Part shown: positions 15,300 to 59,385 of the stretch, piece after piece
Layout of the letters: each line of letters opens with the position of its first letter
Numbering within the stretch: position 1 is the first letter of the stretch
IMG/VR virus record: IMGVR_UViG_3300042562_003539
Location: 4,912 to 68,911 of that record
Length of the DNA stretch: 64,000 nt
From: a virus
Reading direction: 5' to 3' (one strand)
Translations under genes and position numbers: made by a program
The notes under the pieces: model-generated
Seen by the model: the letters and a program-made list of their open reading frames with translations, nothing else
Told to the model about the DNA's origin: nothing
Databases searched by the model: none

Positions 15300-16424
15300 A
15301 TGCCTGAATTTGACTTTATGATTGTGGGATCAGGATTCTTTGGTGCCACTTTTGCAAGAAAAGCAACAGATGCTGGCAAAAAGTGCCTTGTAATTGATAA
15401 AAACAATCACATTGCTGGCGCAACATATGATCGAAAATGGGACAATGGCATTATTGTAAGTGAATATGGAGCGCACATATTCCACACTCAAAGCGAAGAA
15501 GTCTGGGACTTCATTAATAAATTCACAACAATTATGCCTTTCACAAACAAACCAAAAGTTTTATCTAAAGGAAATGTTTATTCATTCCCAATTAACATGA
15601 TGACTCTTCATCAATTATGGGGAGTTATCAATCCAGAAGAAGCATACCGTAAACTGCAAGATGTGCGGATACCATGCGAAAATCCTAGAAACTTTGAAGA
15701 ATGGGCTTTAGACAGAGTTGGCAAGGAAATCTATGAATTATTCTTTTATGGATACACTAAAAAACAATGGATGAAAGAACCTAGAGATCTTCCAGCCTCA
15801 ATAATTCAGAGACTGCCAATAAGACTTACTTATGAAGAAAATTATTTCACAACAAAATATCAAGGCATTCCAAATGAAGGATATTCAGCAACAATAAAAA
15901 ATATGCTTGATGGAATTAAAACAGAACTCAATACTGATTTTTTTACAATTAGAAACAAATGGCGTGATTATGCCAAACATCTGATCTACACAGGACCAAT
16001 AGATAAGTTTTACGACTATGAGTTTGGATCTTTGGAATACAACACTTTAAGATTTGAACACAAAAAAATGCATGGCGACTATCAAGGGAATGCTGTGTTT
16101 AATCATGTAGACATGTCTGTGCCACATATCAGGACAATAGAGCATAAGCATTTTTACAAAAACAATCCAAAACATTATGAAGTCAAGCTGCAATCGAAAG
16201 AAGAAACTGTTGTCTCATATGACATTCCAGTTGCATTTAAAGATCATCCCGAACCTTACTATCCAATCAGAGATGATAAAAACAGCGAACTATACAATAA
16301 GTACGCAGATCTTAAAACAAACCACAAAGAAATCACTTTTGGAGGAAGGCTTGGTGAATATAAATATCTGGACATTGACCAGACAATTGCTTCAGCATTA
16401 ACTAAGTTTAAAACATTTGTGTAG
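15300..16424 (+). CDS. glf: UDP-galactopyranose mutase
   Basis: IVGSGFFGA, YGAHIFHT, YTKKQW, RLPIR, YQGIP, YTGPID, EPYYP, GRLGEYKYLD. Confidence 0.95.
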   Translation: MPEFDFMIVGSGFFGATFARKATDAGKKCLVIDKNNHIAGATYDRKWDNGIIVSEYGAHIFHTQSEEVWDFINKFTTIMPFTNKPKVLSKGNVYSFPINMMTLHQLWGVINPEEAYRKLQDVRIPCENPRNFEEWALDRVGKEIYELFFYGYTKKQWMKEPRDLPASIIQRLPIRLTYEENYFTTKYQGIPNEGYSATIKNMLDGIKTELNTDFFTIRNKWRDYAKHLIYTGPIDKFYDYEFGSLEYNTLRFEHKKMHGDYQGNAVFNHVDMSVPHIRTIEHKHFYKNNPKHYEVKLQSKEETVVSYDIPVAFKDHPEPYYPIRDDKNSELYNKYADLKTNHKEITFGGRLGEYKYLDIDQTIASALTKFKTFV

Positions 16425-16619
16425 AGAGGCTAAACCAACAAGGTTAACCTCTCTGTCTCGATTTCAAGTTTTTAATTAAACTTATTTGAATTGCCTTTGA
16501 AAAGTGCCTCAAAGCATCCTTTTCCTGCATTAAGGTTTCAGGTATTACATAATGATCCGACATCCATACAGACAGCCTGAACTTTTATAATTGTAATACC
16601 GAGGTAGTAAAAAGAGACA
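16423..16619. ncRNA. candidate structured RNA or cis-regulatory leader
   Basis: Six short helices within 200 nt of non-coding DNA (see findings). Confidence 0.4.
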
Positions 16620-16627
16620 ATATATAT

Positions 16628-17578
16628 ATGTTTCCTTATGTTAAGAAAAAACAAATTGAACCAATAAGTCTAAAAGAACACTTTCTGAGAAGAAATAAGG
16701 TTTTAATTAAAAGAAAGTATGGTGGTCATGGTGATATCATCATGCAAAGAATGATGTTTGAAGATTTTCAAAAACACATGCCAGAAATAGAATTAACCTA
16801 CACATGTCCTAAATTATATAAAGATTTTGCAAATAATCACCCATTTGCAAAATGGGTGCCTATAGAAGAAATCAATGAAAGAGATTATGGCATTATTTTT
16901 GACATAAGCACAGCTTGTCGTGTTCATGAAAGTAAAATGGGCGGGAGAAATACTGACCATCGCAGTGACATATGGGCGAAAAGTTGTGGTGTAGAACTTA
17001 CGAATCACAACTGTCACATGGAAATTAATGATGTAGATCTTTATAAAAAATTTATTGAAGAACTTAATCCACAAAAACTGCCAACTGTTTTATTCGCAAC
17101 TCAATCAACAAAAGACAATTTCGGCCAAGCTAAAAGTCTGCCAGAAAAAACTACCTACCAAACAATAAGCAAACTCAAAGAGCTTGGGTTCTTTGTTTTT
17201 ACAATTCACAAAGAGCCAATTGAAATATTCACACTAACAAATACTGTTCAATTTATTAATATAGAACTTTCTGCTTGGGCAGGATTGACAGCAGCAGCAG
17301 ATTATGTCATATCGATTGACACAGGAACATTTCATCTTGCTGGAGCTTTAAAAAAACCATTAGTAGGAATTTTTTCATTTACCGATGGAAAAGTATACGG
17401 TAAATATTACAAATTCACATTGGTTCAAAGACATCGTGACAATGGCAATTGGGATTGTGGTCCATGCTATAATTGCACAATCTGTCCAAAATCAAAAGAA
17501 ATTATAAAACCTTGTATGAGCGATATTAGATTTGAAGAAATAATCGATGCTTTTCAAAAAGAATGTAAAGCTAATTGA
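16628..17578 (+). CDS. glycosyltransferase family 9 (heptosyltransferase-like)
   Basis: GGHGDIIM, ADYVISIDTGTFHLAGALKKPLVGIF, C-terminal CGPCYNC..C..C. Confidence 0.85.
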   Translation: MFPYVKKKQIEPISLKEHFLRRNKVLIKRKYGGHGDIIMQRMMFEDFQKHMPEIELTYTCPKLYKDFANNHPFAKWVPIEEINERDYGIIFDISTACRVHESKMGGRNTDHRSDIWAKSCGVELTNHNCHMEINDVDLYKKFIEELNPQKLPTVLFATQSTKDNFGQAKSLPEKTTYQTISKLKELGFFVFTIHKEPIEIFTLTNTVQFINIELSAWAGLTAAADYVISIDTGTFHLAGALKKPLVGIFSFTDGKVYGKYYKFTLVQRHRDNGNWDCGPCYNCTICPKSKEIIKPCMSDIRFEEIIDAFQKECKAN

Positions 17579-18467
17579 CATCTACCGCTTTCTTTAACCA
17601 AACATTATCTAAATCAAATTCACGAATTTTAATTCCAGACATTAAAATTATATCTTGTCTCATTTTATTTGTTTCATCGTTTTCCGTAATAGAACCAACT
17701 CTCTTGGCATAAATTATTTCATTTATGCCAAAATTGATAATTCTCTGCAAGCAATTAACGCATGGAGTTCCTGTTATGTATATTTTAGATCCACCTATGG
17801 TAAGTGGATTTGTGGTACAGTTCAAAATGGCATTCTCTTCTGCGTGAATCATCCATAATCTTTTTTTATCTCTTATTTTATAAGGAATTTTGCTCTTATC
17901 CGATCCACGAATTGTCGCATTATATCCAGTTCCAATAATATGATTTTGACTGGTAACGATCACAGATCCATGTCTAATATCAGGATCATCTGATCTTAAA
18001 GAAACATCAAATGCTATGTTTAGAAAGTATTCATCAAAAGTAGGCCTTTCAATTTTCCCAATAGAATAATTATTTAAAAAGCATCTTCTGCAATATTCAA
18101 GAAAAACATCATCTGTGAAACTACCTCGCATAATACTTAAATTTTTATGTATCCAACGAACATTCCCTTCAATATATCCAAGGGAACGATCTATCATGTC
18201 TAAAAAGACAGAAGAAAAATCACCTTCTAAATCAAATGAATTAAATTCTAATGGCATTCCAGACAGGCTACATTTTCCGTTTTGATTCAGAAATAAATTC
18301 CACAAATATTGCGGTGACAAATCAAAAGGTATTTTTTTGCCTATCGTATTTTTCTTCAAGTTGTCAACATAAACAAGTGGCAAATCTCCACATTGTCTTT
18401 TTTCATCATTGCCAAGAACAGGAATATCATTGCTGATAAATCCTGTCAAATCATTATTTTCTACCAT
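17571..18467 (-). CDS. dCMP deaminase with N-terminal degenerate HNH-like endonuclease domain
   Basis: RPTFDEYF, GTGYN, HAEENAI, PCVNC; N-terminal QNGKCSLSG...LDMID.SLGYIEGNVRW. Confidence 0.85.
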   Translation of the reverse strand: MVENNDLTGFISNDIPVLGNDEKRQCGDLPLVYVDNLKKNTIGKKIPFDLSPQYLWNLFLNQNGKCSLSGMPLEFNSFDLEGDFSSVFLDMIDRSLGYIEGNVRWIHKNLSIMRGSFTDDVFLEYCRRCFLNNYSIGKIERPTFDEYFLNIAFDVSLRSDDPDIRHGSVIVTSQNHIIGTGYNATIRGSDKSKIPYKIRDKKRLWMIHAEENAILNCTTNPLTIGGSKIYITGTPCVNCLQRIINFGINEIIYAKRVGSITENDETNKMRQDIILMSGIKIREFDLDNVWLKKAVDVN

Positions 18468-22147: not shown

Positions 22148-23461
22148 TTAAGACGTTTTTATCACTTTCAAATCGTTAAGATTGCGTCCACCACGACATG
22201 AAACCTTCAGTCGAAGTTTAGGACAAAGTTCAGATTCGCTTGTAAGCGCATCCATGCTTTTCTTGAAAATTTGTTTCCAGTTATCTTTAGTTACATAAAT
22301 AACGTAACCGTCATGTACAGTATAAGCAATTTGAGCTTTGCCTTCCAACGCAAAATATAATTTAATCAACTTTTCTAGGCATATCGTTGCAGCAGGAGAC
22401 TGCACAGCAAAATTTCTAGCAAGATATTCCTTGCCAACCTCAAAGTTTGTTCTTCGCTTACCGAAGATATCCTTTGCGTATCCATCTTTTTTAACTTTGC
22501 TTTCGCAATCGGCAACAAATGAAATAGCAGTGGGAAACAAAGAACTAATTCGCTCCACCACTTTCTCAGCCACATCAGCCGCCAAACCACATCTCAAAGA
22601 AAGTGATCGGGCCGACTGTCCATATATAACAGGCAAGAAGCATTTTTTTGCCAATTCCCTATCATTTTTTTCTGGATCACTTGACATCAAGACCTGAAAC
22701 AGTGCCGAATAAATATCATCACACTCACACAAACGCAATAGTTTAGAGTCTTGACTAGAGTTGGCTAACACAAAAACTTCCATACCCTTAAAATCAAAAC
22801 TCATAAATAAATTATCACAACCAATCGGCTTCAAAACATCTTTCAAATCAGATCCCATTGTATGCGGAACAAATGATTTTTTGTAAGCCCCATGACAACG
22901 TAATCGACCGTTTTCCTGACCATCAATCTCGTAGTAAGCGTGTACTTTGGCAGCACGTTCTACATCCAATATTCCTACACTCTCAAGATGAGGCAGAACT
23001 GTCGTCATTAACGGTAAATGAATCTTACGATAAATGTTTTCACTTTCTTTCCACAAACCCGACGAAACCAAATGCTTAATCCTATTCATCGCCTCAACAA
23101 ACGAAACAGGAGCAACTTTTTTAATACCACTAAATGATTCTAATATCTTTATATCAATTATAGAAGCCTTTATATCAAGACTCTTGCCAGTCTTACACAA
23201 AACATAGCTTGAAAAGTTCTTCCAATTCCAAGTAAAAACCTTTTTATCTTTTGAAAACAATGATAATTGCAACATACTCAAAATTAAAGGCAATGTATCA
23301 TCACGAATCATTACTTGAAACGAAACACCATCAGAAAGCATGAACTGAAGCTCATTCTCCAAGTCTTTTTCAGCAATGTCCATGATCTCTGGATTAAACC
23401 GCAAGAAAACGGCTTTCTGATCAATTCCAGATAACAACTTGGCCAGAGATTCAAAATTCAT
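22148..23461 (-). CDS. minimal family A DNA polymerase (thumb deleted, exonuclease degenerate)
   Basis: NGRL, motif A DFKGME, motif B RELAKKCFLPVIYG, FGKRR, NFAVQS, motif C TVHDG; AGGAGG RBS. Confidence 0.85.
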   Translation of the reverse strand: MNFESLAKLLSGIDQKAVFLRFNPEIMDIAEKDLENELQFMLSDGVSFQVMIRDDTLPLILSMLQLSLFSKDKKVFTWNWKNFSSYVLCKTGKSLDIKASIIDIKILESFSGIKKVAPVSFVEAMNRIKHLVSSGLWKESENIYRKIHLPLMTTVLPHLESVGILDVERAAKVHAYYEIDGQENGRLRCHGAYKKSFVPHTMGSDLKDVLKPIGCDNLFMSFDFKGMEVFVLANSSQDSKLLRLCECDDIYSALFQVLMSSDPEKNDRELAKKCFLPVIYGQSARSLSLRCGLAADVAEKVVERISSLFPTAISFVADCESKVKKDGYAKDIFGKRRTNFEVGKEYLARNFAVQSPAATICLEKLIKLYFALEGKAQIAYTVHDGYVIYVTKDNWKQIFKKSMDALTSESELCPKLRLKVSCRGGRNLNDLKVIKTS

Positions 23462-23566
23462 AGATCGTTCCTCCTAGGCCCAATTCTGCAAAACTTTTCC
23501 AGTTAAAACAAGACCAATTTATTTTTGAAATTTTTATTTACAATCAAACTTTGGAACGGGATGCTG

Positions 23567-23975
23567 ACCTAAATGGTAATTGCTGTATAAGTCAGTAAGA
23601 ATAATGACTTATTAGGTAAACAAGATTAGTAGAGCAAAAATTTAGCGTTTAAGCTTATTCTTTTTGTTACTGTCTTATTCACTTCAGCTTTTACCTTTTG
23701 GTTGGTGAAGACTTGCGTACTTTTTTTTGCAGTAAACCTAAGATCGAATAGTCCATGGCATTGTGTTTGTTTGGGAGACACAGGAGCCATGAAAGTCAGC
23801 ATAAATTCTATTCGACTTTACCTCTACTGCCGTGAGAACAATGCTACCCGTAATAGCATTTGTTGTAGAACAACTACAAAGACCTGCCCATGGTATGGGC
23901 CTCACAGGTTAGGCACCTTCATCAACTCAGGTAGTACGAAACCATTGTTGAATCCAGTTGGGGGATTGCCAACCA
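23567..23975 (-). ncRNA. candidate large structured ncRNA upstream of the PolA-like gene
   Basis: At least 10 helices incl. nested multibranch and a possible pseudoknot; strand inferred from the promoter at 23977-24004. Confidence 0.6.
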
Positions 23976-23976
23976 T

Positions 23977-24004
23977 ATTCTACAGATTAAAGCATGAATG
24001 TCAA
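23977..24004 (-). promoter_or_regulatory. sigma70-type promoter firing into the structured element
   Basis: TTGACA (23999-24004)-N16-TAGAAT (23977-23982). Confidence 0.7.
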
Positions 24005-24024
24005 ATATTATTTGCCCCAAAATG

Positions 24025-24912
24025 TCAAAAAACTTGCTTCAACCATTCAATTTTTTGATCATAATTAAAAATAATTTCTGGAAACTCTACTGGCAATTCA
24101 TTAAAAGAACTTCTATCCTCAGGCAATATTTCCCTTACTTTTTCAATCAGCCTTTCATAACAAACACTACCGAAACTACTATTTTTAGTTTTTTGTATGC
24201 TTTCTTGATTAGTTCTATCTAACATCTGTACATCACTAGCAAAACTTAACCAAAATGATATTTTACTTTCTTGATGAAGTTTAAGAAGATTGAATTCAAG
24301 AAGTAGGTCTTCTCCCAATAATTGTTCTTCATCGTACCTTATCATGTTGCTTAATTTTTTACTATAAAATACATGTCCACCTAAATTTCTTGCTGCCTTA
24401 TGACCTAATGTAAATATATCATGCTTTTCGGGTCCATACTTATATCCAAGATTAATAATATTCATGCCCCAACATACTGCATATTTATTTTCTCCAATCT
24501 GATTAGAGCCGTTTGTTTGTTCATTTAAAACTTGATCTGAAGGCTTGACAATTAAAACATCAGTTCCCGGGTGATGCCTCATGTGTTTTTCAATTTGAAT
24601 TGCGCCTGTTGGGTAAAATAGGTCGTCTCCATCAGTGAGACTCAGACCATCATATTCTGAGTTTTGCAAAAAATCTAATACAGAGTTTTTACCCTTACTC
24701 GGAGTGCCATTTGATTCTGTAACTTTATATTTGACATTCTCTTTTTCGCACCATTCTGAAAAATGAGAAACAAATTCTTGATTTTGAGAATTGATAATTG
24801 CAACTGTTTCTATTTCAATGGATTCGGTTGAAAATTGATTGCGACAAGAATTTGTGGCACGAATTGCCTTGTCCATATCACGACTAACTAATGGGCAAAA
24901 TGCTATTTTCAT
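24025..24912 (-). CDS. glycosyltransferase, GT-A fold (GT2-like)
   Basis: SNGTPSKGKN, LTDGDD DxD motif, GEDLL. Confidence 0.7.
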   Translation of the reverse strand: MKIAFCPLVSRDMDKAIRATNSCRNQFSTESIEIETVAIINSQNQEFVSHFSEWCEKENVKYKVTESNGTPSKGKNSVLDFLQNSEYDGLSLTDGDDLFYPTGAIQIEKHMRHHPGTDVLIVKPSDQVLNEQTNGSNQIGENKYAVCWGMNIINLGYKYGPEKHDIFTLGHKAARNLGGHVFYSKKLSNMIRYDEEQLLGEDLLLEFNLLKLHQESKISFWLSFASDVQMLDRTNQESIQKTKNSSFGSVCYERLIEKVREILPEDRSSFNELPVEFPEIIFNYDQKIEWLKQVF

Positions 24913-26305: not shown

Positions 26306-27241
26306 TTATATTTCTCTGTAATATTTGTGTAAGGGACTTGTATAGAGGGTGTAATCTAAAAGAGCAGTTCTTATATAAAGACCATTCCTGACTTGTCTTT
26401 CATGATAGTCAGCACGAGAATCATCATCTATGTCTTCACTAATTTCTTCATTTCTAGGGAGAGGATGAAGAATTGCAGCGTTTTCTTTGATTTTATTGAT
26501 ATTGGTTTTGTCAATCTTAAAGAAATCTAGAGAACCACTGACACCTTTGAATCTTTCTTTTTGGATTCTGGTCATATAAATGACATCGATTTCTGGAAGA
26601 ATGTCATTTGCGTCACATATTTCAACATTTTTACAAGGAATATTTGCAAGGTATTTTTCAGGTATGCTCAAATCACAATCTGCATGATCAGTGGCAGCGC
26701 AATAATATATTTTGCAACCATAAATGTGAAGAAGTTCAATAAGACTGTGTATTGTTCTTCCGTTTTTAAGATCTCCACACAACATAACCTTAAGATTACT
26801 GACATCTTTCCATTTTTGTTTAATTGTGTGAAGGTCAAGAAGTGCCTGTGTTGGATGTTCCCCAGATCCACTTCCTGCATTAATTACTGGAACACGAGAA
26901 TATGCTCTTGCTATTTCTGGCCAGCTTGAATCACCATGACGCATAATTATAGCATCAGAATACTGGCCAAGGGTGCGAAATGTATCCTTGAGGCTTTCAC
27001 CTTTGATTAAACTGCTACTTGAAGATGCATCAGCAGCCGTAACACATCTTCCTCCAAGCCAATGCATTGCTCGCTCAAAGGAAAATCTGGTTCTAGTAGA
27101 AGGTTCTGCAAAAAACGAAGAAATACATTTGTTGTTCATTTGGCGACAAAATTCCCAATTCTTTTCAATGTCTGTCGCAATTTCTAAAACAGTTTCAATT
27201 TGATCTTTAGTGAAGTCGGAAATGGACAAAAAATGACGCAT
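26306..27241 (-). CDS. pyrB: aspartate carbamoyltransferase catalytic subunit
   Basis: FAEPSTRTRFSF, KGESLKDT, INAGSGSGEHPTQALLD, GDLKNGRT, YMTRIQKER, HPLPR; start may extend to 27271. Confidence 0.95.
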   Translation of the reverse strand: MRHFLSISDFTKDQIETVLEIATDIEKNWEFCRQMNNKCISSFFAEPSTRTRFSFERAMHWLGGRCVTAADASSSSSLIKGESLKDTFRTLGQYSDAIIMRHGDSSWPEIARAYSRVPVINAGSGSGEHPTQALLDLHTIKQKWKDVSNLKVMLCGDLKNGRTIHSLIELLHIYGCKIYYCAATDHADCDLSIPEKYLANIPCKNVEICDANDILPEIDVIYMTRIQKERFKGVSGSLDFFKIDKTNINKIKENAAILHPLPRNEEISEDIDDDSRADYHERQVRNGLYIRTALLDYTLYTSPLHKYYREI

Positions 27242-27290
27242 TTGTTCATCTCGTAATTTTTTGCTTGACAATTAATTATATGTTGAGAAC

Positions 27291-28473: not shown

Positions 28474-28725
28474 ATGGCAACAAAAAAAACAACTTGTAAT
28501 TTACCAGCTGGATTGAGCGAGTGTTGCATCAATCCATCTATTGTTTTTAAATGTCCTCCACATAAATCTTCAGAAGTATGTGTAGACAATCAAAGCGATG
28601 GAGCTTATGTTCCTCGCACTGTTTCTTATGAAGAAGCATATCGTCAATGTAAGTATATCAAGCAAACAAGTTATCAAGGACAATATAAGCAATTTGGCAG
28701 CGCCTTCTCAAATAGCTTCAAATAG
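28474..28725 (+). CDS. small Cys-containing hypothetical protein
   Basis: 83-aa ORF upstream of the collagen genes. Confidence 0.55.
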   Translation: MATKKTTCNLPAGLSECCINPSIVFKCPPHKSSEVCVDNQSDGAYVPRTVSYEEAYRQCKYIKQTSYQGQYKQFGSAFSNSFK

Positions 28726-28732
28726 GAAAAAA

Positions 28733-30217
28733 ATGATAAATCAAGGTAATCAAGAAAATTTTGATAACAAAGAAGAATTATTAATCAATAATTCCGCCTA
28801 CGTCAAAGCTTTACAGCTTGGAGAACAAGGATATCAAGGATATCAAGGAACTAAAGGAACTCAAGGAACTCAAGGTTATCAAGGACCCGGAATAGGATCT
28901 CAAGGAAGACAAGGACATCAAGGAAGACAAGGAGAGCAAGGAGAGCAAGGATATCAAGGAAGACAAGGAAGACAAGGTCTGCAAGGAGAAAAAGGACTAA
29001 CGGGACCACAAGGAGGATTAGGATTAACAGGAGTAAAAGGGGATAAAGGGAATCAGGGTCAACAAGGAGAAAAAGGATCTGTAGGCATAGGAAACCAAGG
29101 ACAACAAGGAAATCTAGGACTTCAAGGACGACAAGGAAATAAAGGACTTCAAGGAGACTTTGGAAATCAAGGAGAAAGAGGAAATCAAGGTTTACAAGGA
29201 AGAGACGGTTTTCAAGGCACTATTGGATTTCAAGGTCGTCAGGGATTTCAAGGAAATCAAGGAAATCAAGGTTTTCAAGGATTTCAAGGTCGCCAAGGAT
29301 TTCAAGGCCGTCAAGGAGAAAAGGGCTATCAAGGCAGTCAAGGTTTTCAGGGATATCAAGGTCATCAAGGTCGTCAAGGATTTCAAGGTCGCCAAGGATA
29401 TCAAGGTCATCAAGGATATCAAGGATATCAAGGTCATCAAGGACGCCAAGGATTTCAAGGTCGCCAAGGATTTCAAGGTCATCAAGGATTTCAAGGTCGC
29501 CAAGGATTTCAAGGTCACCAAGGATTTCAAGGTCGCCAAGGAGAAAAAGGATTAATTGGAGTTCAAGGAGCAATAGGATTAACTGGGGCAATAGGCCCAC
29601 AAGGAAAACAAGGAATAAACGGCTTAGGAGGAGTTGTTGGTCCGAAAGGGTCTCAAGGCGCTCAAGGCGCAATAGGGCCGAAAGGATCAACAGGATCAAC
29701 AGGCCCCAAAGGAGCAACAGGTGCGACAGGCCCCACAGGAGCAACAGGTGCGACAGGAGCAAAAGGATCAACAGGAGCAAAAGGAGCACAAGGTTCAGCA
29801 GGAGCTAAAAATGCAATTGTTCCAATTATACAAGAATATTCTGAAAAATATGTTGGCTTGTCTTGCGTAGAAATGCCTGAAGTTCGGTTTGAAGATTTAG
29901 TTTTTACAGTTATTGGCAATCAAGGCACTAACAATCATAAAGATTTTATTAAATTAAATGATAGTTTTGTGCAAGTTTGCGATCCTCAGTCAATTGTCGT
30001 CGTCAGTGTAGTTCCATCAGCTCCAATTAACATTGGAGCATACATAGAAGGTGAATTTTTGTTTATCGAAGCAGAAAGCGAAAAGTTAATTGAAAATGAA
30101 ATAAAATTAACAATTAGACTATCAGGAATTAGATTGGGCTTTAGCGGCAGAAGATTTGTTGAATACACATACAAAGAAATGATTAAAAACAATCAATTTT
30201 GGAATAGTTGGGAATAA
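28733..30217 (+). CDS. collagen-like fibre protein 1 (Gly-X-Gln)
   Basis: Long G-X-Q / G-X-K / G-X-T triplet run; C-terminal [11 protein letters not shown] domain; start MINQG after AGGA. Confidence 0.85.
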   Translation: MINQGNQENFDNKEELLINNSAYVKALQLGEQGYQGYQGTKGTQGTQGYQGPGIGSQGRQGHQGRQGEQGEQGYQGRQGRQGLQGEKGLTGPQGGLGLTGVKGDKGNQGQQGEKGSVGIGNQGQQGNLGLQGRQGNKGLQGDFGNQGERGNQGLQGRDGFQGTIGFQGRQGFQGNQGNQGFQGFQGRQGFQGRQGEKGYQGSQGFQGYQGHQGRQGFQGRQGYQGHQGYQGYQGHQGRQGFQGRQGFQGHQGFQGRQGFQGHQGFQGRQGEKGLIGVQGAIGLTGAIGPQGKQGINGLGGVVGPKGSQGAQGAIGPKGSTGSTGPKGATGATGPTGATGATGAKGSTGAKGAQGSAGAKNAIVPIIQEYSEKYVGLSCVEMPEVRFEDLVFTVIGNQGTNNHKDFIKLNDSFVQVCDPQSIVVVSVVPSAPINIGAYIEGEFLFIEAESEKLIENEIKLTIRLSGIRLGFSGRRFVEYTYKEMIKNNQFWNSWE

Positions 30218-30255
30218 GCTATTTTATAATAAATCAAAAAAAGTATAGGAATAAA

Positions 30256-33200
30256 ATGGCAAATCAATGCAATCAATCAGCAACGCAAAGAACAGAAGAA
30301 GAATTATTGTGTGTTTTTGCAGACAATAACCAAGGTGGAATTACCGCACAAGATCTGCGAGATTTTGTTGTTTCGACTCAAATTGGACAGTCAAAACAAG
30401 GACCACAAGGAAACCAAGGGCAATCTGGCTCACAAGGCAACCAAGGCTCACAAGGAAGAGCAGGGTCTCAAGGCGCTCAAGGTGGTCCTAGTATTGTTGC
30501 GGGTCCACAAGGCGCACAAGGTACAAAAGGAAATCAAGGAAATCAAGGATTACAAGGAAATCAAGGAACTATTGGCCTTCAAGGCAGTCCTGATGGATTC
30601 CAAGGAATTCAAGGTCTTCAGGGCGAACAAGGAATCAAAGGTGAACAAGGTCTTCAAGGCGAACAAGGAATCCAAGGTGCTGGATTTCAAGGAGATATTG
30701 GCCTACAAGGCTATCAAGGGTTCCAAGGTCAAGGATATCAAGGACAAAAGGGAAGTCAAGGAATTGATGGAGCACAAGGACAACAAGGCGTTCAAGGTTT
30801 TCAAGGACCGCAAGGTGGAAAAGGCGCACAAGGAACAACAGGCGCAACAGGGATTGGAACACAAGGCGTTCAAGGGCTTCAAGGACTACAAGGCAATCAG
30901 GGAATTCAAGGCGCTGGATATCAAGGCGCTCAAGGATATCAAGGAAGACAAGGAACTATTGGATTACAAGGAACTATTGGATTACAAGGACAACAAGGAC
31001 AACAAGGCCAACAAGGATTTCAAGGACATCAAGGAAGACAAGGTTTAATAGGAAATCAAGGCGAAAAAGGGTTCCAAGGAGAACAAGGGCGACAAGGATT
31101 TCAAGGACATCAAGGAAGACAAGGTTTAATAGGAAATCAAGGCGAAAAAGGGTTCCAAGGAGAACAAGGGCGACAAGGATTTCAAGGCCGTCAAGGGTTA
31201 ACTGGAAATCAAGGATCAACTGGAAATCAAGGCGAAAAAGGGTTCCAAGGAAATCAAGGAAACCAAGGACAAGGATTCCAAGGAAATCAAGGATTCCAAG
31301 GATTCCAAGGAAATCAAGGATTCCAAGGATTCCAAGGATTCCAAGGATTCCAAGGATATCAAGGATTAGGATATCAAGGATACCAAAGCAACCAAGGATT
31401 CCAAGGGCTTCAAGGTTTCCAAGGAAATCAAGGCGAACAAGGGCTTCAAGGTTTCCAAGGAAATCAAGGCGAACAAGGCTATCAAAGTGAACAAGGATTT
31501 CAAGGTGAACAAGGAAGACAAGGAAGACAAGGCGAACAAGGATATCAAGGAGATAAAGGCGAACAAGGATATCAAGGATTTCAAGGAATACTAGGAAGTC
31601 AAGGATTTCAAGGAATACTAGGAAGTCAAGGAAATAAAGGAGATACTGGAAATCAAGGCGAACAAGGATATCAAGGAAATCAAGGCTATCAAGGTCATCA
31701 AGGATTTACTGGAATTCAAGGAGATAGAGGATATCAAGGATATCAAGGTAGACAAGGAAGACAAGGCGAACAAGGCGATGTTGGATTAACTGGCAATCAA
31801 GGAAGCCTAGGATATCAAGGAGAACAAGGATATCAAGGATTAGGATATCAAGGAGAAACAGGATATCAAGGATATCAAAGCAATCAAGGATACCAAGGAT
31901 ACCAAGGATATCAAGGAATACAAGGATATCAAGGACTAGGATATCAAGGAGAAACAGGATATCAAGGATATCAAAGCAATCAAGGATACCAAGGAAATCA
32001 AGGTGAACAAGGATATCAAGGACTAGGATATCAAGGAGAAACTGGAAATATAGGAGATGTAGGATATCAAGGATATCAAGGAAATCAAGGTGAACAAGGA
32101 TATGTAGGACAACAAGGAAGCGAAGGTGAGCGAGGATACCAAGGATATCAAGGAATCCAAGGATTTCAAGGTCGTCAAGGATACCAAGGAAATCAAGGAG
32201 ATAGAGGATATCAAGGATTTCAAGGAACTCAAGGAGCACAAGGAGATCTTGGATTAACTGGTTACCAAGGACAAATAGGCTATCAAGGTCTGCAAGGTGA
32301 ACAAGGATATCAAGGTTTTCAAGGGTTCCAAGGATATCAAGGACTAGGATATCAAGGGTTCCAAGGATATCAAGGGTTCCAAGGATATCAAGGGTTCCAA
32401 GGATATCAAGGATTTCAGGGATATCAAGGATTTCAGGGATTCCAAGGTACTATTGGAATTACTGGCGCTCAAGGCATAACTGGCGCTCAAGGATCTCAAG
32501 GATTCCAAGGCTATCAGGGAAATCAAGGATTCCAAGGGTTTCAAGGATTCCAAGGTTACCAAGGAAATCAAGGTCATCAAGGTTATCAAGGGCTACAAGG
32601 CTATCAAGGTTATCAAGGGCTGCAAGGATTTCAGGGAAATCAAGGAAATCAAGGGCTGCAAGGTAGTCCCGATGGATTTCAAGGAGGCCAAGGTTATCAA
32701 GGGTTCCAAGGTCATCAGGGAGAACAAGGCTATCAAGGAAATCAAGGATTCCAAGGGTTCCAAGGTCATCAAGGAAATCAAGGATTCCAAGGGTTTCAAG
32801 GTCATCAAGGAAATCAAGGATTCCAAGGGTTCCAAGGAAATCAGGGAGAACAAGGCTATCAGGGAAACCAAGGATTCCAAGGGTTCCAAGGATTTCAGGG
32901 AAACCAAGGCTATCAAGGGTTCCAAGGAAATCAAGGCAATCAGGGAGAACAAGGATTCCAAGGGTTCCAAGGATTTCAGGGAAACCAAGGCTATCAAGGG
33001 TTCCAAGGAAATCAAGGCAATCAGGGAGAACAAGGATTTCAAGGATTCCAAGGATTTCAGGGAAATCAAGGTAATCAGGGAGAACAAGGGGCTGGTTATC
33101 AAGGAAATCAAGGTTACCAAGGAAATCAAGGGCTGCAAGGTAGTCCCGATGGATTCCAAGGAGGCCAAGGCTATCAAGGGTTCCAAGGGTTACAAGGAAA

Positions 33201-35331
33201 TCAAGGCTATCAAGGGAACCAAGGCTATCAAGGGTTCCAAGGTCATCAGGGAGAACAAGGCTATCAGGGAAATCAAGGATTCCAAGGATTCCAAGGCCAT
33301 CAAGGAAATCAAGGATTCCAAGGGTTCCAAGGAAATCAGGGAGAACAAGGCTATCAGGGAAACCAAGGATTCCAAGGGTTCCAAGGTCATCAGGGAGAAC
33401 AAGGCTATCAGGGAAATCAAGGATTCCAAGGATTCCAAGGCCATCAAGGAAATCAAGGATTCCAAGGGTTCCAAGGTCATCAGGGAGAACAAGGCTATCA
33501 GGGAAATCAAGGATTCCAAGGGTTCCAAGGTCATCAAGGAGAACAAGGTTATCAGGGAAATCAAGGTTTTCAAGGATTCCAAGGTCATCAGGGAGAACAA
33601 GGCTATCAAGGAAATCAAGGATTCCAAGGATTCCAAGGTTATCAAGGAAATCAAGGGTTCCAAGGGTTTCAAGGAAATCAAGGATTCCAAGGATATCAAG
33701 GAAACTTGGGATATCAAGGAGATGCTGGTGAATCTGGTGTTCAAGGACCGCAAGGCATTACAGGCACTGGACTACAAGGCAATCAGGGATTACAAGGTCC
33801 TGCTGATGGATTTCAAGGATATCAAGGATATCAAGGATATCAAGGATCAATAGGGAGTCAAGGTGTTGCTGGAACAGGTGGTCAAGGCTATCAAGGAAAC
33901 CAAGGAACTCAGGGATATCAAGCATATCCTTTTGGATTTCAAGGCAGTCAAGGCAACGTAGGAAGCCAAGGATTCCAAGGACCAGCTAATGGTTTTCAAG
34001 GAAGACAAGGCGCACAAGGAAGACAAGGATTCCAAGGAAACCAAGGAAATCAAGGAGAACAAGGAAATCAAGGCAATCAAGGAGCAGGATTCCAAGGCAA
34101 TCAGGGATTGCAAGGCCCTGCCGATGGATTTCAAGGATATCAAGGTAACCAAGGATATCAAGGTAACCAAGGATATCAAGGTAACCAAGGAAGACAAGGA
34201 TATCAAGGAAGACAAGGATATCAAGGCAACCAAGGAAATCAAGGTTTTCAAGGTCCTGCCGATGGATTTCAAGGCATTCAAGGAAATCAAGGATCTTTAT
34301 TTGGTCCAAAATATAAGTATGAGTCGGTATATGGTAATCAAGCTCCATCTGCTGGTTATATTCACTTTAATAATGCAACAATAAGTAATGTAACTCAGAT
34401 TTACATCAAAAAAGTTGATTATAACGGTATAGATGAAGGAAATTACATCGAAGATTTTATTGTAAATAATTACATTTACATTGAATCCGACAATACAACA
34501 AATTTAGCAATATTTAATTCAAATGGAAGTCCCATTGGCTACCAGTCTGGGGGATATTCTGGATTTCCAATAGATTATTATTCAGTTCCAGTCAATTTTG
34601 TTTCTGGAAACGCATTAGTAAATCAAGAAATTTATAGCTTACTTACAGGAATAACAGGGAATCAAGGTTATCAAGGTTATCAAGGTTATCAAGGAAATCA
34701 GGGTACAATTGGGGCACAAGGAAATCAAGGTGGACCAGCTGGATTTCAAGGCCAAACAGGAGCACAAGGGCCTAAAGGCGATCAAGGCGATCAAGGTGAT
34801 CAAGGTGAGCCGGGTCCTCTAGGAGAACAAGGTCCTCCCGGCGAAAATGGTTCTGGATTGCAAGGTTCAGCCGGAGCACAAGGCGCACAAGGCGCAGAAG
34901 GTCCACAAGGTGATAAGTATGCGATCCTTCCTGTTGTTACTTCTCAAGGAACTGAATATGTTGAGCTTATATGTGTAGAAATGCCAGAAGTTAGATTTGA
35001 AGATATCGTCATATTCAAGGTTGGTGGACTTGGACATAAAACAGAAAATGTTTCAAAATTTATTGATGATCGGTTGTTACAAGTTTGTGCCTTTAACACA
35101 ATAAAACCTGTAAGTGTTGTTCCATCAATGCCAGTTATTGTTGGAGCTTATGTGAGAGACAATCTTATTATTATTGATGTGGAAAGCGATAAGCTTATCA
35201 ATAATCAAATTGAAGTGGTAGTGAGACTTTCTGGAATAAGGGCTGGCGCTGCACATAAGAGATTCGCAACCCATACCTACGAAGAAATGGTTAGGAATAA
35301 TACATTCTGGAGTAGATGGAGAGAAGGTTAA
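30256..35331 (+). CDS. giant collagen-like fibre protein 2 (Gly-X-Gln)
   Basis: ~1300 aa of G-X-Q triplets, one globular insert, same C-terminal [11 protein letters not shown] domain; start MANQC after AGGA. Confidence 0.88.
30400..34295 (+). repeat. 9-bp-period coding repeat (CAAGGNNNN)n
   Basis: caagga/caaggt recurring every 9 nt; higher-order duplications of 27-81 nt visible. Confidence 0.9.
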
Positions 35332-42489: not shown

Positions 42490-42656
42490 TGTTCAAAAAA
42501 TTCTGGTCAATTTGGCGTAAAGCCATGGGTGACGACTTAATGTGTGATGACATTGAATGTCACATAGGAGCCGTCATTCGCACATTCTTTTGGATAATAA
42601 ACATTATCACATGCGGATTCATCATGGCAAATTGTATTAGACATTGGAATTCTTAG
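42489..42656 (+). CDS. small membrane protein (55 aa) resembling a conserved T4-like phage hypothetical
   Basis: Hand translation MFKKFWSIWRKAMG...AVIRTFFWIINIITCGFIMANCIRHWNS; TAATG coupling. Confidence 0.65.
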   Translation: MFKKFWSIWRKAMGDDLMCDDIECHIGAVIRTFFWIINIITCGFIMANCIRHWNS

Positions 42657-44211
42657 TCATTTCAACATATATGCTAATCTCAGGGAGATAATCCATTGTC
42701 TCCCTTATTATCTGTAAATTACCTTCATTGAAATTCTTTCTCTCAACACGGAATCCAGCTTCCATACCAATCTGCTCTAAACTACTAAAATCATATGCAA
42801 TCTTGTGACCATCAAATAAGAATGACCACAATTTGAATGTTTGTGCTTTGTTTTGAGAAGCAGTGACATTCATCTGATCCAAAAATTCAAGATTGTTATC
42901 CTTATAATAACTAACTAATTTTTCTGCATCTGGAACAGCAATCCTTATGGTCGCATTTGGTTTCATAATGCGATTACATTCTTTAAGAAAATTCAATCCT
43001 TCATTCCAATCCAGATGCTCAAGCATATGACTGGAAACAATCAAATCAATAGTATTATTTTCAAATGGAAGAGTATGCCTACAATCCATCTGAAGGAATT
43101 TGTATTGATTTTGAGCGGCATAATCATTCAAATTAACAATGTCTGTGTTGATCCAGCCATTATGCAACATTACCGTAAAACTACCAATATTGAGTTTAAG
43201 CTTACCATCTCCAGCAGGTATGTTAAGAGCAAGAGATCCTTCTGTTAAATGCTTATTGTCGATAAATTCCTGATTACTCCAAGAAAGATTTAGGCTATTT
43301 GTGTTTACTCCATGCATTCCTCTGGAAGAAACACGATTTATTTCTTTGAGAATAACAGGAATATATTCTGCTTCAATAAAATCAAAAAATCCATGTGATA
43401 CACATAAATCAAACTGATTGTCTTCAAATGGCCAAGGTGTTTGCCTCACATCAAATTCAGCAACAGAATCACTCACTCTTGTTAAAATACAATGCTTGGA
43501 TATTTCCAGTCCTTTGCAAATTATTTCTTTAGATTCAAACCTTTTAAGCAAATATCCTCTTCCACAGCCAATTTCCAAAACAGAAGTTGGATTCTTCTTC
43601 ATGATGTTATTGAAAACAATCCAATTGCTTGGATGGTCACGATAGAATCCAGTGTTCTCACCATAAAAATGAGGATTATCAAAATACTCTCTATTGAATT
43701 CAATTTTATTGGTGGTTTTAGTGGCTTCAATAATCATATCTGTCTCTAATTCCCCAAAAGGCAAGACAACAACATTGGTGAATCCAGCATCAGTCATTAA
43801 CTTAATTGCATATTTTGGACTGAAGCTGTTGCGATGAGTGTTTTCTGGATAATCTTGATCGCCGAAAATAATACAAGAACAGTTATCGTCCCACTCATCG
43901 TGATCAAGAACATATTGCATTTGCTTTTCAGTGTTGGCTGTAATGAAAACAACTTTACCATTGTTCTTGAGAATACGATAAACTTCACTGATGAATAGTT
44001 TTACTTTACGCCAAGAAAGATGTTCAATGCAAAATTGACTGAATACACCATTGTATTCATTGTCTGGTATTGGTAATGGTTCATTAAAATCAGCAACTAT
44101 GTCAATGCTTGTTCCTGAGCGGACATCGAGATTTGGACGGAAATATGGTCTATCTCCTCCTCCTAATTCAATTACCTTGTCGGTTTGAATAAATGGAAAT
44201 GAATAACTCAT
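42637..44211 (-). CDS. triple-domain SAM-dependent methyltransferase
   Basis: Three motif-I copies (IELGGG, LEIGCGRG, LNIGS), each with LP/PF..N..D and EH / E..R.L motifs; start MSYSF. Confidence 0.8.
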   Translation of the reverse strand: MSYSFPFIQTDKVIELGGGDRPYFRPNLDVRSGTSIDIVADFNEPLPIPDNEYNGVFSQFCIEHLSWRKVKLFISEVYRILKNNGKVVFITANTEKQMQYVLDHDEWDDNCSCIIFGDQDYPENTHRNSFSPKYAIKLMTDAGFTNVVVLPFGELETDMIIEATKTTNKIEFNREYFDNPHFYGENTGFYRDHPSNWIVFNNIMKKNPTSVLEIGCGRGYLLKRFESKEIICKGLEISKHCILTRVSDSVAEFDVRQTPWPFEDNQFDLCVSHGFFDFIEAEYIPVILKEINRVSSRGMHGVNTNSLNLSWSNQEFIDNKHLTEGSLALNIPAGDGKLKLNIGSFTVMLHNGWINTDIVNLNDYAAQNQYKFLQMDCRHTLPFENNTIDLIVSSHMLEHLDWNEGLNFLKECNRIMKPNATIRIAVPDAEKLVSYYKDNNLEFLDQMNVTASQNKAQTFKLWSFLFDGHKIAYDFSSLEQIGMEAGFRVERKNFNEGNLQIIRETMDYLPEISIYVEMTKNSNV

Positions 44212-45215
44212 ATCATGCCTCGCCACAATTGGATGTATTGTTCTTTGACCTTGTCCCAAGTGTAATTTTTCGCTTTTGCTTCTGCTTTTCTGCCAAATTC
44301 TTCACAAAGATTTGGATTGTTTTTTAAGTTGTCGATCATTTGTGCAAGCTTTTTGGTGTTTTTCTTCTCAAATACAAAACCACAATCTTCAACGCAGTCA
44401 GATGCTCCAGCACCATCAGAAACAACAACAGGTCTGCCAGAACTCATAGCTTCAAGAACTTCAATCCCAAATCCTTCTGTTGCGCTTGGCTGAACATAAA
44501 TAGAGCAACTATTGTAAAAATCTTCCGTAGATTTAACCCAGCCTTGAATGTTAATGTTGCCTTTGCCGAAATGCCTAATCAATGGCAATAAACCGGGAGT
44601 CTGACTTCCAGCAAGATTCAATATTGCATCTTTGTAGTTTAGAATAGACCAAGCTTCTAACAAATATCGCAATCCCTTATCAGGTCCACACTGACCAAGA
44701 TATCCAACTGTAAACCTCTTTGGATGTTTCTTGTTTCTAACAGGGATATGACCGTGCGGAATTATTTTTGTATTGTTTATTCCATATTTATTATTGGTTT
44801 TTTTTGCAACTGATGATGGACATATTACAACATCAGCATTCTTGTAGCAGCTTATGTATTTTTGAAATAAATTTGGATCATTTAAGTGTGGAAAGTCAAA
44901 AGAAGCACCTAAACCTAAAAATTCTTCCCTGCTGATGTCAACATCGTGAGCAGCTACAGTATAAGTTATTTTTACGCCATTTGCTTTTAACTTGGTGGTT
45001 AGTTCTGGGAATGTGCCAGCATAGAAGTGTGCAAGTTTATACTTGCTGAAATCAATTTCTTGGATTGCCTTTTCTGAATCAAAAGGATTATTGGTTGGCT
45101 CAGGATTGATAACATCAACTGGACCAAGTTGATTTAACGCTTCAAATTCATGTGCGGTTACTTGACCTCCTCCTGTTTCTGACCCGATTTTATCATTTGT
45201 TACAAATAAAAACAT
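44208..45215 (-). CDS. glycosyltransferase family 4
   Basis: GYLGQ..PDKG, VQPSATEGFGIEVLEAMSSGRPVV. Confidence 0.9.
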   Translation of the reverse strand: MFLFVTNDKIGSETGGGQVTAHEFEALNQLGPVDVINPEPTNNPFDSEKAIQEIDFSKYKLAHFYAGTFPELTTKLKANGVKITYTVAAHDVDISREEFLGLGASFDFPHLNDPNLFQKYISCYKNADVVICPSSVAKKTNNKYGINNTKIIPHGHIPVRNKKHPKRFTVGYLGQCGPDKGLRYLLEAWSILNYKDAILNLAGSQTPGLLPLIRHFGKGNINIQGWVKSTEDFYNSCSIYVQPSATEGFGIEVLEAMSSGRPVVVSDGAGASDCVEDCGFVFEKKNTKKLAQMIDNLKNNPNLCEEFGRKAEAKAKNYTWDKVKEQYIQLWRGMI

Positions 45216-45218
45216 GAT

Positions 45219-45878
45219 TTAATCCAATGGTTTTCTTAATCTTACATAGCAAGAAACATGAGGCAATCCAATTGTATTCAGTATAGCCTCATTCATTGAT
45301 ATTGGGCTTCCAACAGAAAAAACCTTACCGTTGATTGTTATTTCTTCGCAAACACCAAGATTGAATACTTCTGTGCTAAAATCTTGAACAATTCTTTCCA
45401 GTAGATTTGCCCAATCATAAACACGCCAATGAGGTTTGTGTTCAACAAATTTACCACCGAAAGGTGTTGTTAAATAACAAGTTCCACCCGGTTTCAATAA
45501 ATCATAAATGTATCGCATGGCAATAACATCGTAATATTCATGCTTCCTGCCTTCTCCATAAGTATTCAAACCAAAATGTTCAATGGCAGAGACAATAACA
45601 GCAGCATCGAAAGTTCCTATGTTTTCACGAATGAAGTAAGATGGTAACCGACAGAAATCAGCAGTAATGTGATTATAGTTTAATTCTTGATCAGAATCTC
45701 TTAGATCAATGCCTGTAACGTGAAACCCACATTTAGCCATCATACTGGCAAGAGGACTGTGTTGAGATCCAATTTCAAGTATTTTCGAGCCTTTTGGTTC
45801 ATCAAAATCAGCAAAAAATAATCCTACTTCTGGATCAAAAGTTTTATATTCTTGAATAATATGGTCAGGTATTTTCAC
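45219..45878 (-). CDS. class I SAM-dependent methyltransferase
   Basis: ILEIGS, TGIDLR, SAIEHFG, LLKPGG; GTGA-overlap start. Confidence 0.8.
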   Translation of the reverse strand: MKIPDHIIQEYKTFDPEVGLFFADFDEPKGSKILEIGSQHSPLASMMAKCGFHVTGIDLRDSDQELNYNHITADFCRLPSYFIRENIGTFDAAVIVSAIEHFGLNTYGEGRKHEYYDVIAMRYIYDLLKPGGTCYLTTPFGGKFVEHKPHWRVYDWANLLERIVQDFSTEVFNLGVCEEITINGKVFSVGSPISMNEAILNTIGLPHVSCYVRLRKPLD

Positions 45879-46579
45879 AAATCCCACACTTTCAAACATA
45901 TTGTGGCAAGAACACAACCGCCGGGAAAACTTGCAGAATAATATTTTTCGTTATTATATTCAGGCACACCAAAATAATTTAATATTTCTGCTGCCTCATT
46001 TTTTCTCATGTAAAAATCAAACTGATTTTCACCTTCTTCTATGATAAAATCAAAAGTTAAATAAAGCTCTCCGTCCTTCTTCAACATTCCTATCATGTTT
46101 TCAATACATTCAATTCTTTCACTACTACTCTGTATGTGTTCTAGAACAGATATGCAATAGATCTTATCAAATTTTTCTTCACTTCTATAATCTTGAATTT
46201 TAGAATTATAAAACTCAATGTTTTTGAAGCCAAGTCTTTCTGCTGATCTTATAGATTTGTCAAGATAGTCTTGATTCATGTCAATCGTGACTACTTTGGC
46301 GCATCTTTTGGCAACTGCATATTTGAAAACAGCATATGCTCCTCCAGCATCAAGGCAAACATCGCTTGGCTTCAAATTACTATGCATAATTGCCCAAGGA
46401 TATTCGTATTGTCTGCTCCAGTGCAAACTTGTAAAGCTAGTTGGAACCTCAAAGTTTAGTGGAGCATTTTCATGTGGCTCTAAAATTGTGCATTCTGGGC
46501 ATTGAATGTCATAGCTCATCAATTCACGAAGAATTGTTTCGTCAGGACAGCCATAAGTATAAGAAATATGTATTTTCAC
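45875..46579 (-). CDS. class I SAM-dependent methyltransferase
   Basis: SRQYEYPW, LDAGGA, FDKIYCISVLEH, LKKDG. Confidence 0.82.
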   Translation of the reverse strand: MKIHISYTYGCPDETILRELMSYDIQCPECTILEPHENAPLNFEVPTSFTSLHWSRQYEYPWAIMHSNLKPSDVCLDAGGAYAVFKYAVAKRCAKVVTIDMNQDYLDKSIRSAERLGFKNIEFYNSKIQDYRSEEKFDKIYCISVLEHIQSSSERIECIENMIGMLKKDGELYLTFDFIIEEGENQFDFYMRKNEAAEILNYFGVPEYNNEKYYSASFPGGCVLATICLKVWDL

Positions 46580-59372: not shown

Positions 59373-59385
59373 AAATTAAACTCGA

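Follow-up and report, generated by a model that had tools for sequence, protein, structure and literature searches.

In phages T4 and RB69, the family B DNA polymerase gene (gene 43) has a leader operator that forms a hairpin, and the gene 32 operator is a leader pseudoknot. Both span tens of nucleotides and overlap or abut the ribosome site. In the Escherichia coli rpmI-rplT (L35-L20) leader, distant sequences pair and form a site bound by the operon's own protein. ColE1 RNA II, a folded sigma-70 transcript of ~500 nt, needs a Pol I-type polymerase. The glmS and lariat-capping ribozymes are pseudoknotted and lie in the 5′ part of the messenger that they process. Large RNAs can also adjoin the gene of their partner, as in OLE/oapA, the HEARO/IscB guide RNA, and retron RNA/reverse transcriptase. 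To our knowledge, natural RNAs that reach several hundred nucleotides and hold multiple conserved pseudoknots are rare outside ribosomal RNA, RNase P, tmRNA, introns, and the "ornate" RNAs, and GOLLD, ROOL, OLE, and HEARO are not tied to a polymerase gene. Each new large RNA has so far brought lessons in RNA architecture or a new mechanism. GOLLD was first seen in lake DNA and phages. GOLLD, ROOL, OLE, and HEARO are noncoding RNAs several hundred nucleotides long, with many helices, conserved junctions, and functions that are unknown or only recently found (PMC12286853). Gene 32 is autoregulated through its leader pseudoknot, which is bound by its own product, and the survey that recounts this catalogues 8,495 candidate RNAs from viruses, with a mean length of 67 nt (PMC10690425).

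The stretch described here is a real folded RNA of ~450 bases from an uncatalogued family. It lies upstream of a family A DNA polymerase gene in a 64-kb window, the whole stretch of DNA that was analysed. No description of it was found in the literature; the main text of the viral survey (PMC10690425) does not mention DNA polymerase, and its supplementary tables may list pieces. Like the T4/RB69 operators, it is a structured RNA ahead of a phage replication gene, and by this analogy they may be the nearest model for its mode of action. However, it has 13 helices and three pseudoknots, its polymerase is family A rather than family B, and no sequence or model relation to those operators was found. 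Like the rpmI-rplT operator, it pairs across hundreds of nucleotides, whereas the rpmI-rplT pseudoknot includes the ribosome site, the knots here lie well upstream, and genes, organism, and sequence differ. It shares length, a multitude of helices, conserved junctions, and a lack of coding capacity with GOLLD and its kind, and a lake and phage setting with GOLLD itself, but their Rfam models do not match it even at E<=10, and it is strictly single-copy and placed immediately before one gene. The defining features of RNA II are its origin, RNase H processing, and antisense RNA I, and none of them was seen here. The glmS and lariat-capping ribozymes have no Rfam match here, and the RNA is two to three times larger than they are. 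We rate it as a new family of the structured-leader or large ornate kind, with a real chance of something further afield.

Locus and genomic setting

The source virus record is 68.9 kb long, with a completeness of 16% by CheckV. The locus comprises the following features:
22148-23461, minus strand: family A DNA polymerase gene, 437 aa (Pfam DNA_pol_A, E 1.7e-27)
23462-24024 (563 nt): gap between two minus-strand genes, holding the structured RNA
23462..23524, minus strand: unconserved A/T-rich spacer, with a Shine-Dalgarno AGGAGG at 23475-23470
23525..23972, minus strand: whole conserved folded RNA, ~450 nt, delimited by identity to relatives and structure counts
23977..24004, minus strand: sigma-70-type promoter (11/12), TTGACA (24004-23999), 16-nt spacer, and TAGAAT (23982-23977)
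24025-24912, minus strand: 295-aa ORF of unknown family on the far side of the gap

Open reading frames around the gap form a replication and nucleotide-metabolism module, encoding a DnaB-like helicase, a RecA-like protein, a gp32-like protein, DEAD-box helicases, a dCMP deaminase, and an aspartate carbamoyltransferase. Searches of Pfam, PHROG, and PDB sequences gave no match for the 295-aa upstream ORF or the 183-aa downstream ORF. Among named relatives, the closest polymerase is that of a 595-kb uncultured phage (33.6% identity). The predicted structure of the 437-aa polymerase (pLDDT 85.3, pTM 0.87) superposes end to end on polymerases of the Pol I large-fragment type (Pol nu, Bst Pol I, Pol theta, Klenow), at query TM scores of 0.64–0.74, and 0.70–0.74 for most listed chains. 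The superposition revealed no extra domain, RNA-binding or other, and the protein is predicted to be a compact but complete enzyme of this type. Residues 383–385 are H-D-G and invariant across the polymerase family; this site is presumably motif C, where Pol I-type enzymes have H-D-E.

Architecture of the RNA

A sequence-only reading of the window had placed a multibranch element with a possible pseudoknot at 23567-23975, and every complementary segment that it listed is present where it was placed. Conservation reaches ~23525, so the left boundary of 23567 falls ~40 nt short. From 5′ to 3′, the fold runs through a 5′ hairpin region, P2, the AACCTG junction, P3, the P4 arm, a 3′ domain, and a 12-nt 3′ "staple." Percentages below are paired cells in the alignments of homologues:
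23930..23943, minus strand: P2 hairpin, GGT (23943-41) with ACC (23932-30)
23938-23933, minus strand: PK1 5′ strand CGTACT, in the P2 loop
23832..23910, minus strand: P3 three-hairpin domain
23910-23905, minus strand: AACCTG junction
23905-01/23836-32, minus strand: P3, GTGAG/CTCAC, 100% paired
23900-895/23891-886, minus strand: P3a, GCCCAT/ATGGGC, 96% paired
23883-23874, minus strand: nearly invariant GTCTTTGTAG
23874-71/23865-62, minus strand: P3b, GTTG/CAAC, 100% paired
23860-54/23846-40, minus strand: P3c, AATGCTA/TAGCATT, loop TTACGGG
23729..23830, minus strand: P4 arm
23830-25/23734-29, minus strand: P4a, GCAGTA/TACTGC, with 6/6 pairs changing on both sides
23824-16 facing 23743-35, minus strand: conserved P4 internal loop, GAGGTAAAG facing TCTTAGGTT
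23815-08/23751-44, minus strand: P4b, TCGAATAG/CTATTCGA, 67–68% paired in an imperfect alignment
23802-23795, minus strand: PK2 5′ strand ATGCTGAC, inside the P4 arm
23791-86/23759-54, minus strand: variable P4 tip hairpin, CATGGC/GCCATG
23782-76/23768-62, minus strand: variable P4 tip hairpin, TGTGTCT/AAACACA
23716..23721, minus strand: PK1 3′ strand AGTACG, pairing with 23938-23933 from ~215 nt downstream
23587..23710, minus strand: looser 3′ domain with P5, P6, the CTCTACTAA motif, and P7
23710-06/23686-82, minus strand: P5, CTTCA/TGAAG, 60% paired
23655-23644, minus strand: P6, AGC-TTAAAC-GCT, 95–97% paired, 2/3 pairs compensated
23612-05/23594-87, minus strand: P7, ATAAGTCA/TGACTTAT, 74–78% paired, 4–5 pairs compensated
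23557..23568, minus strand: 12-nt 3′ staple, forming PK2 and PK3 side by side
23568-61, minus strand: staple PK2 strand GTCAGCAT, pairing with 23802-795, ~230 nt away
23560-57, minus strand: staple PK3 strand CCCG, pairing with the P3c-loop CGGG at 23850-47, ~290 nt away
23533..23547, minus strand: conserved 3′ motif TTGATTGTAAATAAA, core GATTGTAAA (23545-23537), closing the conserved block

Folding of the minus strand gave −121.5 kcal/mol (z −5.20; 0/100 dinucleotide shuffles as good) and of the plus strand −116.9 kcal/mol (z −3.56; 1/100 as good). Both strands therefore fold better than shuffles, the minus strand more so. GC content is 0.37–0.42 over 23600-24049 versus 0.29–0.36 in the flanks, in agreement with the above-background value noticed earlier. 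The RNA is encoded on the minus strand, because the promoter and both flanking genes are on that strand, its z-score is better, and its model contains more G-U than A-C cells (41 versus 15; the A-C count is comparable to other mismatch classes). The strand had previously been said to depend on the promoter alone.

A small protein gene, such as the 118-aa ORF at 23702-24058 on the plus strand, or an element acting as DNA was also considered in place of an RNA. Although ORFs of 58–118 aa overlap the region and the plus strand also outfolds its shuffles, no conserved reading frame exists on either strand among 16 homologues. Their longest open stretches span 31–118 codons in the RNA sense and 37–114 in antisense, with no fixed frame, and one- and two-base indels interrupt the conserved blocks. 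Substitutions are pairwise compensatory, including across 220–290 nt, and the G-U excess on the minus strand also counts against this explanation, which is very improbable.

Covariation across homologues

The model was written from the helices of the window and then counted on alignments of homologues. On 14 distinct homologues from related uncultured phage contigs it comprises 68 pairs in 13 helices, three pseudoknots included. In this alignment 85.3% of cells are paired versus 33.6–44.7% with slid partners, 43 pairs change on both sides versus 13–19 in slid controls, and the covariation score is 0.402 versus 0.078–0.122. None of 500 shuffles matched any of the five measures. An 11-sequence model of 73 pairs gave 87.0% paired cells (slid, 32.8–45.7%) and 41 pairs changing on both sides (slid, 12–18), and RNAalifold on seven sequences found compensatory change in 29 of 43 pairs. 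Alignments were plain MAFFT output, and local misalignment of rows L026, L197, and L204 depresses the values for P2, PK1, P4b, and PK2. The multibranch element with a pseudoknot is thus borne out by covariation in 14 homologues.

The sequence-only reading had one pseudoknot, CGTACT/AGTACG, and it holds as PK1: 88.8% of its cells are paired, and 4/6 pairs change on both sides in the 14 sequences. Eight compensated versions occur (CGTACT/AGTACG, CGCACTT/AAGTGCG, TGTACT/AGTACA, GTGCT/AGCAC, AAAGTGCT/AGCACTTT, GCGCT/AGCGC, GAAAGTA/TACTTTT, and TGCGT/ACGCA). The P2 closing pair around it covaries as well (UA 6, CG 2, UG 2). Two further pseudoknots were found, at 23802-23795/23568-23561 (PK2) and 23850-23847/23560-23557 (PK3). 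PK2 has six versions (ATGCTGAC/GTCAGCAT, TTGCTGAC/GTCAGCAA, GGCTGA/TCAGCC, TGCAGA/TCTGCA, GCCGAC/GTCGGC, and CCCGA/TCGGG); the counts for all three pseudoknots refer to sequences, not independent events. PK3 is 96–100% paired and is matched in 15/15 sequences, as CGGG/CCCG in nine and CGAG/CTCG in six. A single 12-nt staple thereby ties two distant domains together.

Other helices proposed earlier fared unequally. P3 and P4a stand as proposed, and P4b, P3a, P3c, and the hairpin at 23587-23612 (P7) all show compensatory changes. CATGGC/GCCATG and TGTGTTT/AGACACA (plus-strand letters) form in the window, but these P4 tip hairpins are confined to its closest relatives. TTGTAG/CTACAA is likewise present in the window, but in a register that relatives do not share; they keep GTTG/CAAC (P3b) instead. 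The long-range helix 23700-10/23917-27 and its extension can also form in the window but are not conserved (52% paired; 107/500 shuffles equal), and the RNA-strand copy has an A-C mismatch where the plus strand has G-T. Part of its bases is reused by the local hairpin P5, which covaries; all five P5 pairs show two-sided changes, as in CTTCA/TGAAG versus ACAAT/ATTGT.

About 60 unpaired nucleotides are conserved in the junctions (AACCTG, GTCTTTGTAG, AGGTAAAG, TTTAGG, the TTAAAC loop, and GATTGTAAA). The 3′ motif is kept as GATTGTAAA, GATTGTACA, or GATTTTAAA in 12/14 alignment rows. In the window, GATTGTAAA has 15 matches at <=3 mismatches versus 12.8 expected and one exact copy; it was rejected as a repeated phage promoter because this exact copy is unique. 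The motif is a perfect 14-nt palindrome, TGATTGTACAATCA, in L214, ~90 nt before position 1501, and L007 and L168 carry TTGTACAA. Such a palindrome might be recognised by a protein that binds as a dimer. RNAalifold paired a 5′ ACUGAGA with the 3′ end in one diverged four-sequence subgroup; all pairs were invariant, no counterpart was found by eye in other groups, and the pairing was set aside.

Comparison with known RNA classes

The earlier view that the element belongs to no known RNA class agrees with the searches. Rfam 15 (4,227 models, including RNase P, tmRNA, group I/II introns, riboswitches, GOLLD, ROOL, OLE, and HEARO) gave no match at or above the gathering threshold in the 64-kb window, and ARAGORN found no tRNA or tmRNA gene. 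At E<=10, 23300-24200 gave three weak unrelated matches, two to snoRNAs and one to a plastid intron fragment (E 2.2–9.4). Nine relatives at E<=1 gave one unrelated miRNA match (E 0.1). A group I or II intron was also rejected: a promoter lies at the 5′ edge, the upstream neighbour is variable, the polymerase is predicted to be a complete enzyme whose ORF has a Shine-Dalgarno and ATG of its own, and no intron model, and hence no conserved catalytic core, matches the fold. The sole intron-type match (14 bits) is at 24052-24078 on the plus strand, outside the RNA.

Distribution

A polymerase search of viral contigs recovered 12 loci, each with a 550–650-nt gap before the gene, and gap identity in the closest was 80%, 78%, and 73%. 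The set of distinct RNAs was enlarged by motif scans of viral and metagenome contigs with nhmmer confirmation. Among the matches listed, the loose-pattern viral-contig scan returned mostly chance hits, and only nhmmer-confirmed loci were kept. A second polymerase search, by protein alignment, gave 42 loci. The RNA was detected in 25, comprising 23 by nhmmer and two (L189 and L214, E ~1e-7) by the covariance model of the P3 domain (R1). In the window, R1 has a single match in 64 kb (100.9 bits, E 4.5e-30). The diverged group L009-L012 (= L192, L194-L196) is marginal at E 0.14, with a layout similar by eye and 16/122 predicted pairs compensated among four sequences.

Wherever it was found, the RNA is directly upstream of the polymerase gene and co-oriented with it, and its other neighbour changes from locus to locus, both in gene identity and in strand. 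Five large records (168–381 kb; CheckV completeness 39–79%) were searched for additional copies. Four carry one copy each, adjoining the polymerase gene, and the fifth has none. A second model match in one of them (20.5 bits) was rejected, as it lies inside an ORF, on the other strand, with many non-standard pairs. A strict motif pattern occurred in none of 185,579 bacterial and archaeal genomes, and the gap had no blastn match among 50,697 phage records. Matching DNA is present in 20 listed sequencing runs, from lake or freshwater metagenomes; the listing included no RNA run.

Six loci with polymerases 54–55% identical (L184-L187, L193, and L213) have long gaps in which nhmmer and R1 found no match, as does L201, a 343-kb record with a polymerase 42% identical. 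The gaps of the six span 260–680 nt upstream of position 1501, are conserved among themselves, and share by eye the similar words ACTGGAT, GGTCTTAGG, and TTGTACA. Judged by sequence, they may hold a further diverged form of the RNA. The L206 contig has no sequence upstream of the polymerase. In five loci with polymerases 35–36% identical, the gaps are <=65 nt and leave no room for the RNA; the 595-kb phage also has no gap before its polymerase. Where polymerase relatives lack the RNA, an ORF of ~390 aa is found upstream in L172 (1841-3004) and L212 (320-1504). The ORF's stop overlaps the start of the polymerase gene, the copies share 58% identity, the L212 copy has no Pfam match, and no homologue is encoded in the window.

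Promoter, spacer, and coupling to the polymerase gene

The promoter at 24004-23977 is one of two zero-mismatch TTGACA-N16-TANAAT matches in the window, and its position suggests an RNA start near 23970. In the window and three close relatives (L002, L003, and L004), a promoter of 10–12/12 ends 65–67 nt before AACCTG (4/4 examined), and the spacers of these promoters are unconserved. In other members, candidate promoters lie farther upstream, and some members have weak candidates within the spacer before the polymerase gene. Weak promoter-like sites (9–10/12) are present in the spacers of 7/16 members scanned, at varying positions, so the polymerase might have its own promoter in some phages; the spacer of the window has no strong promoter.

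At its 3′ end, the conserved RNA ends at ~23525, 60–65 nt upstream of the polymerase gene in the window. RNA identity to five relatives (57–79%) is about equal to that of the polymerase coding sequence (56–76%), and spacer identity (40–56%) is roughly alignment noise. The staple lies 89–159 nt from the start codon in 12 members. In the window, the stretch made up of tail, spacer, and start region shows no folding beyond chance (z +1.60; 195/200 shuffles as good). No hairpin-plus-U-run occurs between staple and start codon in any of the 12. Because of this distance and an unconserved, unstructured spacer, there is no conserved terminator and no conserved helix sequestering the ribosome site, such as known leaders use. 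Pairing of the tail with the first codons or the Shine-Dalgarno looked plausible by eye in the window, L002, and L003, failed in L004 and L026, and was dropped. P3a followed by GUCUUUGU (window 23886-23900, minus strand) was flagged as terminator-like in 7/12 members; since the site is internal to the conserved fold, it is taken as structure, not as a stop signal.

The RNA probably controls or assists the polymerase. Our preferred but tentative reading, at a probability of roughly 0.4, is that it forms the first part of the polymerase messenger and acts in cis as a leader setting polymerase output. Host polymerase would start transcription early from the host-type promoter at 24004-23977, and the RNA would fold into its 5′ hairpin region, three-hairpin P3 domain, and long P4 arm. 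PK1 and the staple (PK2, PK3) would then lock the domains into a compact body. Transcription would pass through the unstructured A/U-rich spacer into the polymerase gene, with no terminator on the way. The polymerase or another replication protein would bind the leader and modulate polymerase output, as for T4 genes 43 and 32. A fixed, co-oriented site, conservation, the lack of a terminator in 12/12 members and of a strong promoter in the window's spacer, the replication module, and the gene 32 precedent argue for this reading. It is weakened by the large fold, which in 12/12 members ends well short of the ribosome site that T4-type operators overlap or abut, the lack of a conserved expression platform, a polymerase model with no RNA-binding domain, and the weak spacer promoters. 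At ~450 nt with three pseudoknots, the RNA is several times larger than any protein-binding operator known to us. As a control element, it would exceed in size every replication-gene leader known so far.

Another reading is a riboswitch that senses a metabolite or ion, for example nucleotide supply, and controls the polymerase gene. The RNA lies in the 5′ untranslated region of the gene, its conserved junction nucleotides and pseudoknots could form a pocket, and the window encodes a dCMP deaminase and an aspartate carbamoyltransferase. A riboswitch is nevertheless unlikely, as the conserved expression platform of such elements is missing (no terminator in 12/12 members, no conserved pairing with the ribosome site), the RNA is much larger than known aptamers, no Rfam riboswitch matches, and it heads one gene family only, whereas riboswitches usually serve several pathway genes.

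A strong promoter followed by a long folded RNA and a 58–79% A/T unstructured stretch would also suit a replication-origin transcript, serving as a primer or R-loop in the downstream A/T-rich DNA and extended by the Pol I-like enzyme. ColE1 RNA II and the promoter-dependent origins of T4 and T7 are analogues; the site is within the replication gene module, and the adjoining enzyme is of the same family as the RNA II extender. However, there is no switch in GC skew or gene orientation at the locus, tail A/T is only slightly above the ~65% of the genome, no repeats or iterons were noticed, and nothing links the fold to DNA synthesis. An origin transcript is quite unlikely.

Size and knotting, which weaken the leader reading, instead suit the main rival, a stand-alone functional RNA, either a ribozyme or an RNA that works with a protein (possibly the polymerase), that is co-transcribed and acts separately or is cut out. 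Three covarying pseudoknots in ~450 nt and ~60 conserved unpaired junction nucleotides are more typical of catalytic or scaffold RNAs than of simple operators. Conservation stops sharply well before the start codon, and OLE, HEARO, and retrons are precedents for an RNA adjoining its partner gene. Against it, no terminator or other 3′-end signal follows the fold, no further copy turned up elsewhere in the five large records, the polymerase has no added domain, and no known ribozyme family matches. We consider it less probable than the leader, though more probable than the riboswitch or origin readings. A partner or ribozyme of this kind would be a new RNA-polymerase relationship. The boldest form of this reading, a large catalytic or scaffold RNA of a new class that cooperates with a replicative phage polymerase, either as its processed partner or primer or as a self-processing ribozyme shaping the messenger, is possible but doubtful; if so, a structured RNA cofactor would for the first time be linked to a family A DNA polymerase.

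With at least 14 distinct sequences, 68 supported pairs, and three knots, the family is defined well enough to build, probe, and image. Strict coupling to the polymerase in very large lake phages points to a further layer in how they run DNA replication.

Other features of the window

Host-like metabolic genes are present in the phage at window 15300-18467, 26306-27271, and 42637-47634. They encode a UDP-galactopyranose mutase, a heptosyltransferase-like protein, the dCMP deaminase, the aspartate carbamoyltransferase, a triple methyltransferase, and two group 1 glycosyltransferases. Two giant ORFs of 2,955 and 1,408 aa occupy window 50505-63612 (minus strand), and the 1,408-aa ORF has no Pfam match. 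Two neighbouring collagen-repeat proteins of 539 and 1,707 aa are encoded at window 28598-35331 (plus strand), and the Pfam Collagen repeat matches the larger one in 10 stretches (E 1.6e-181).
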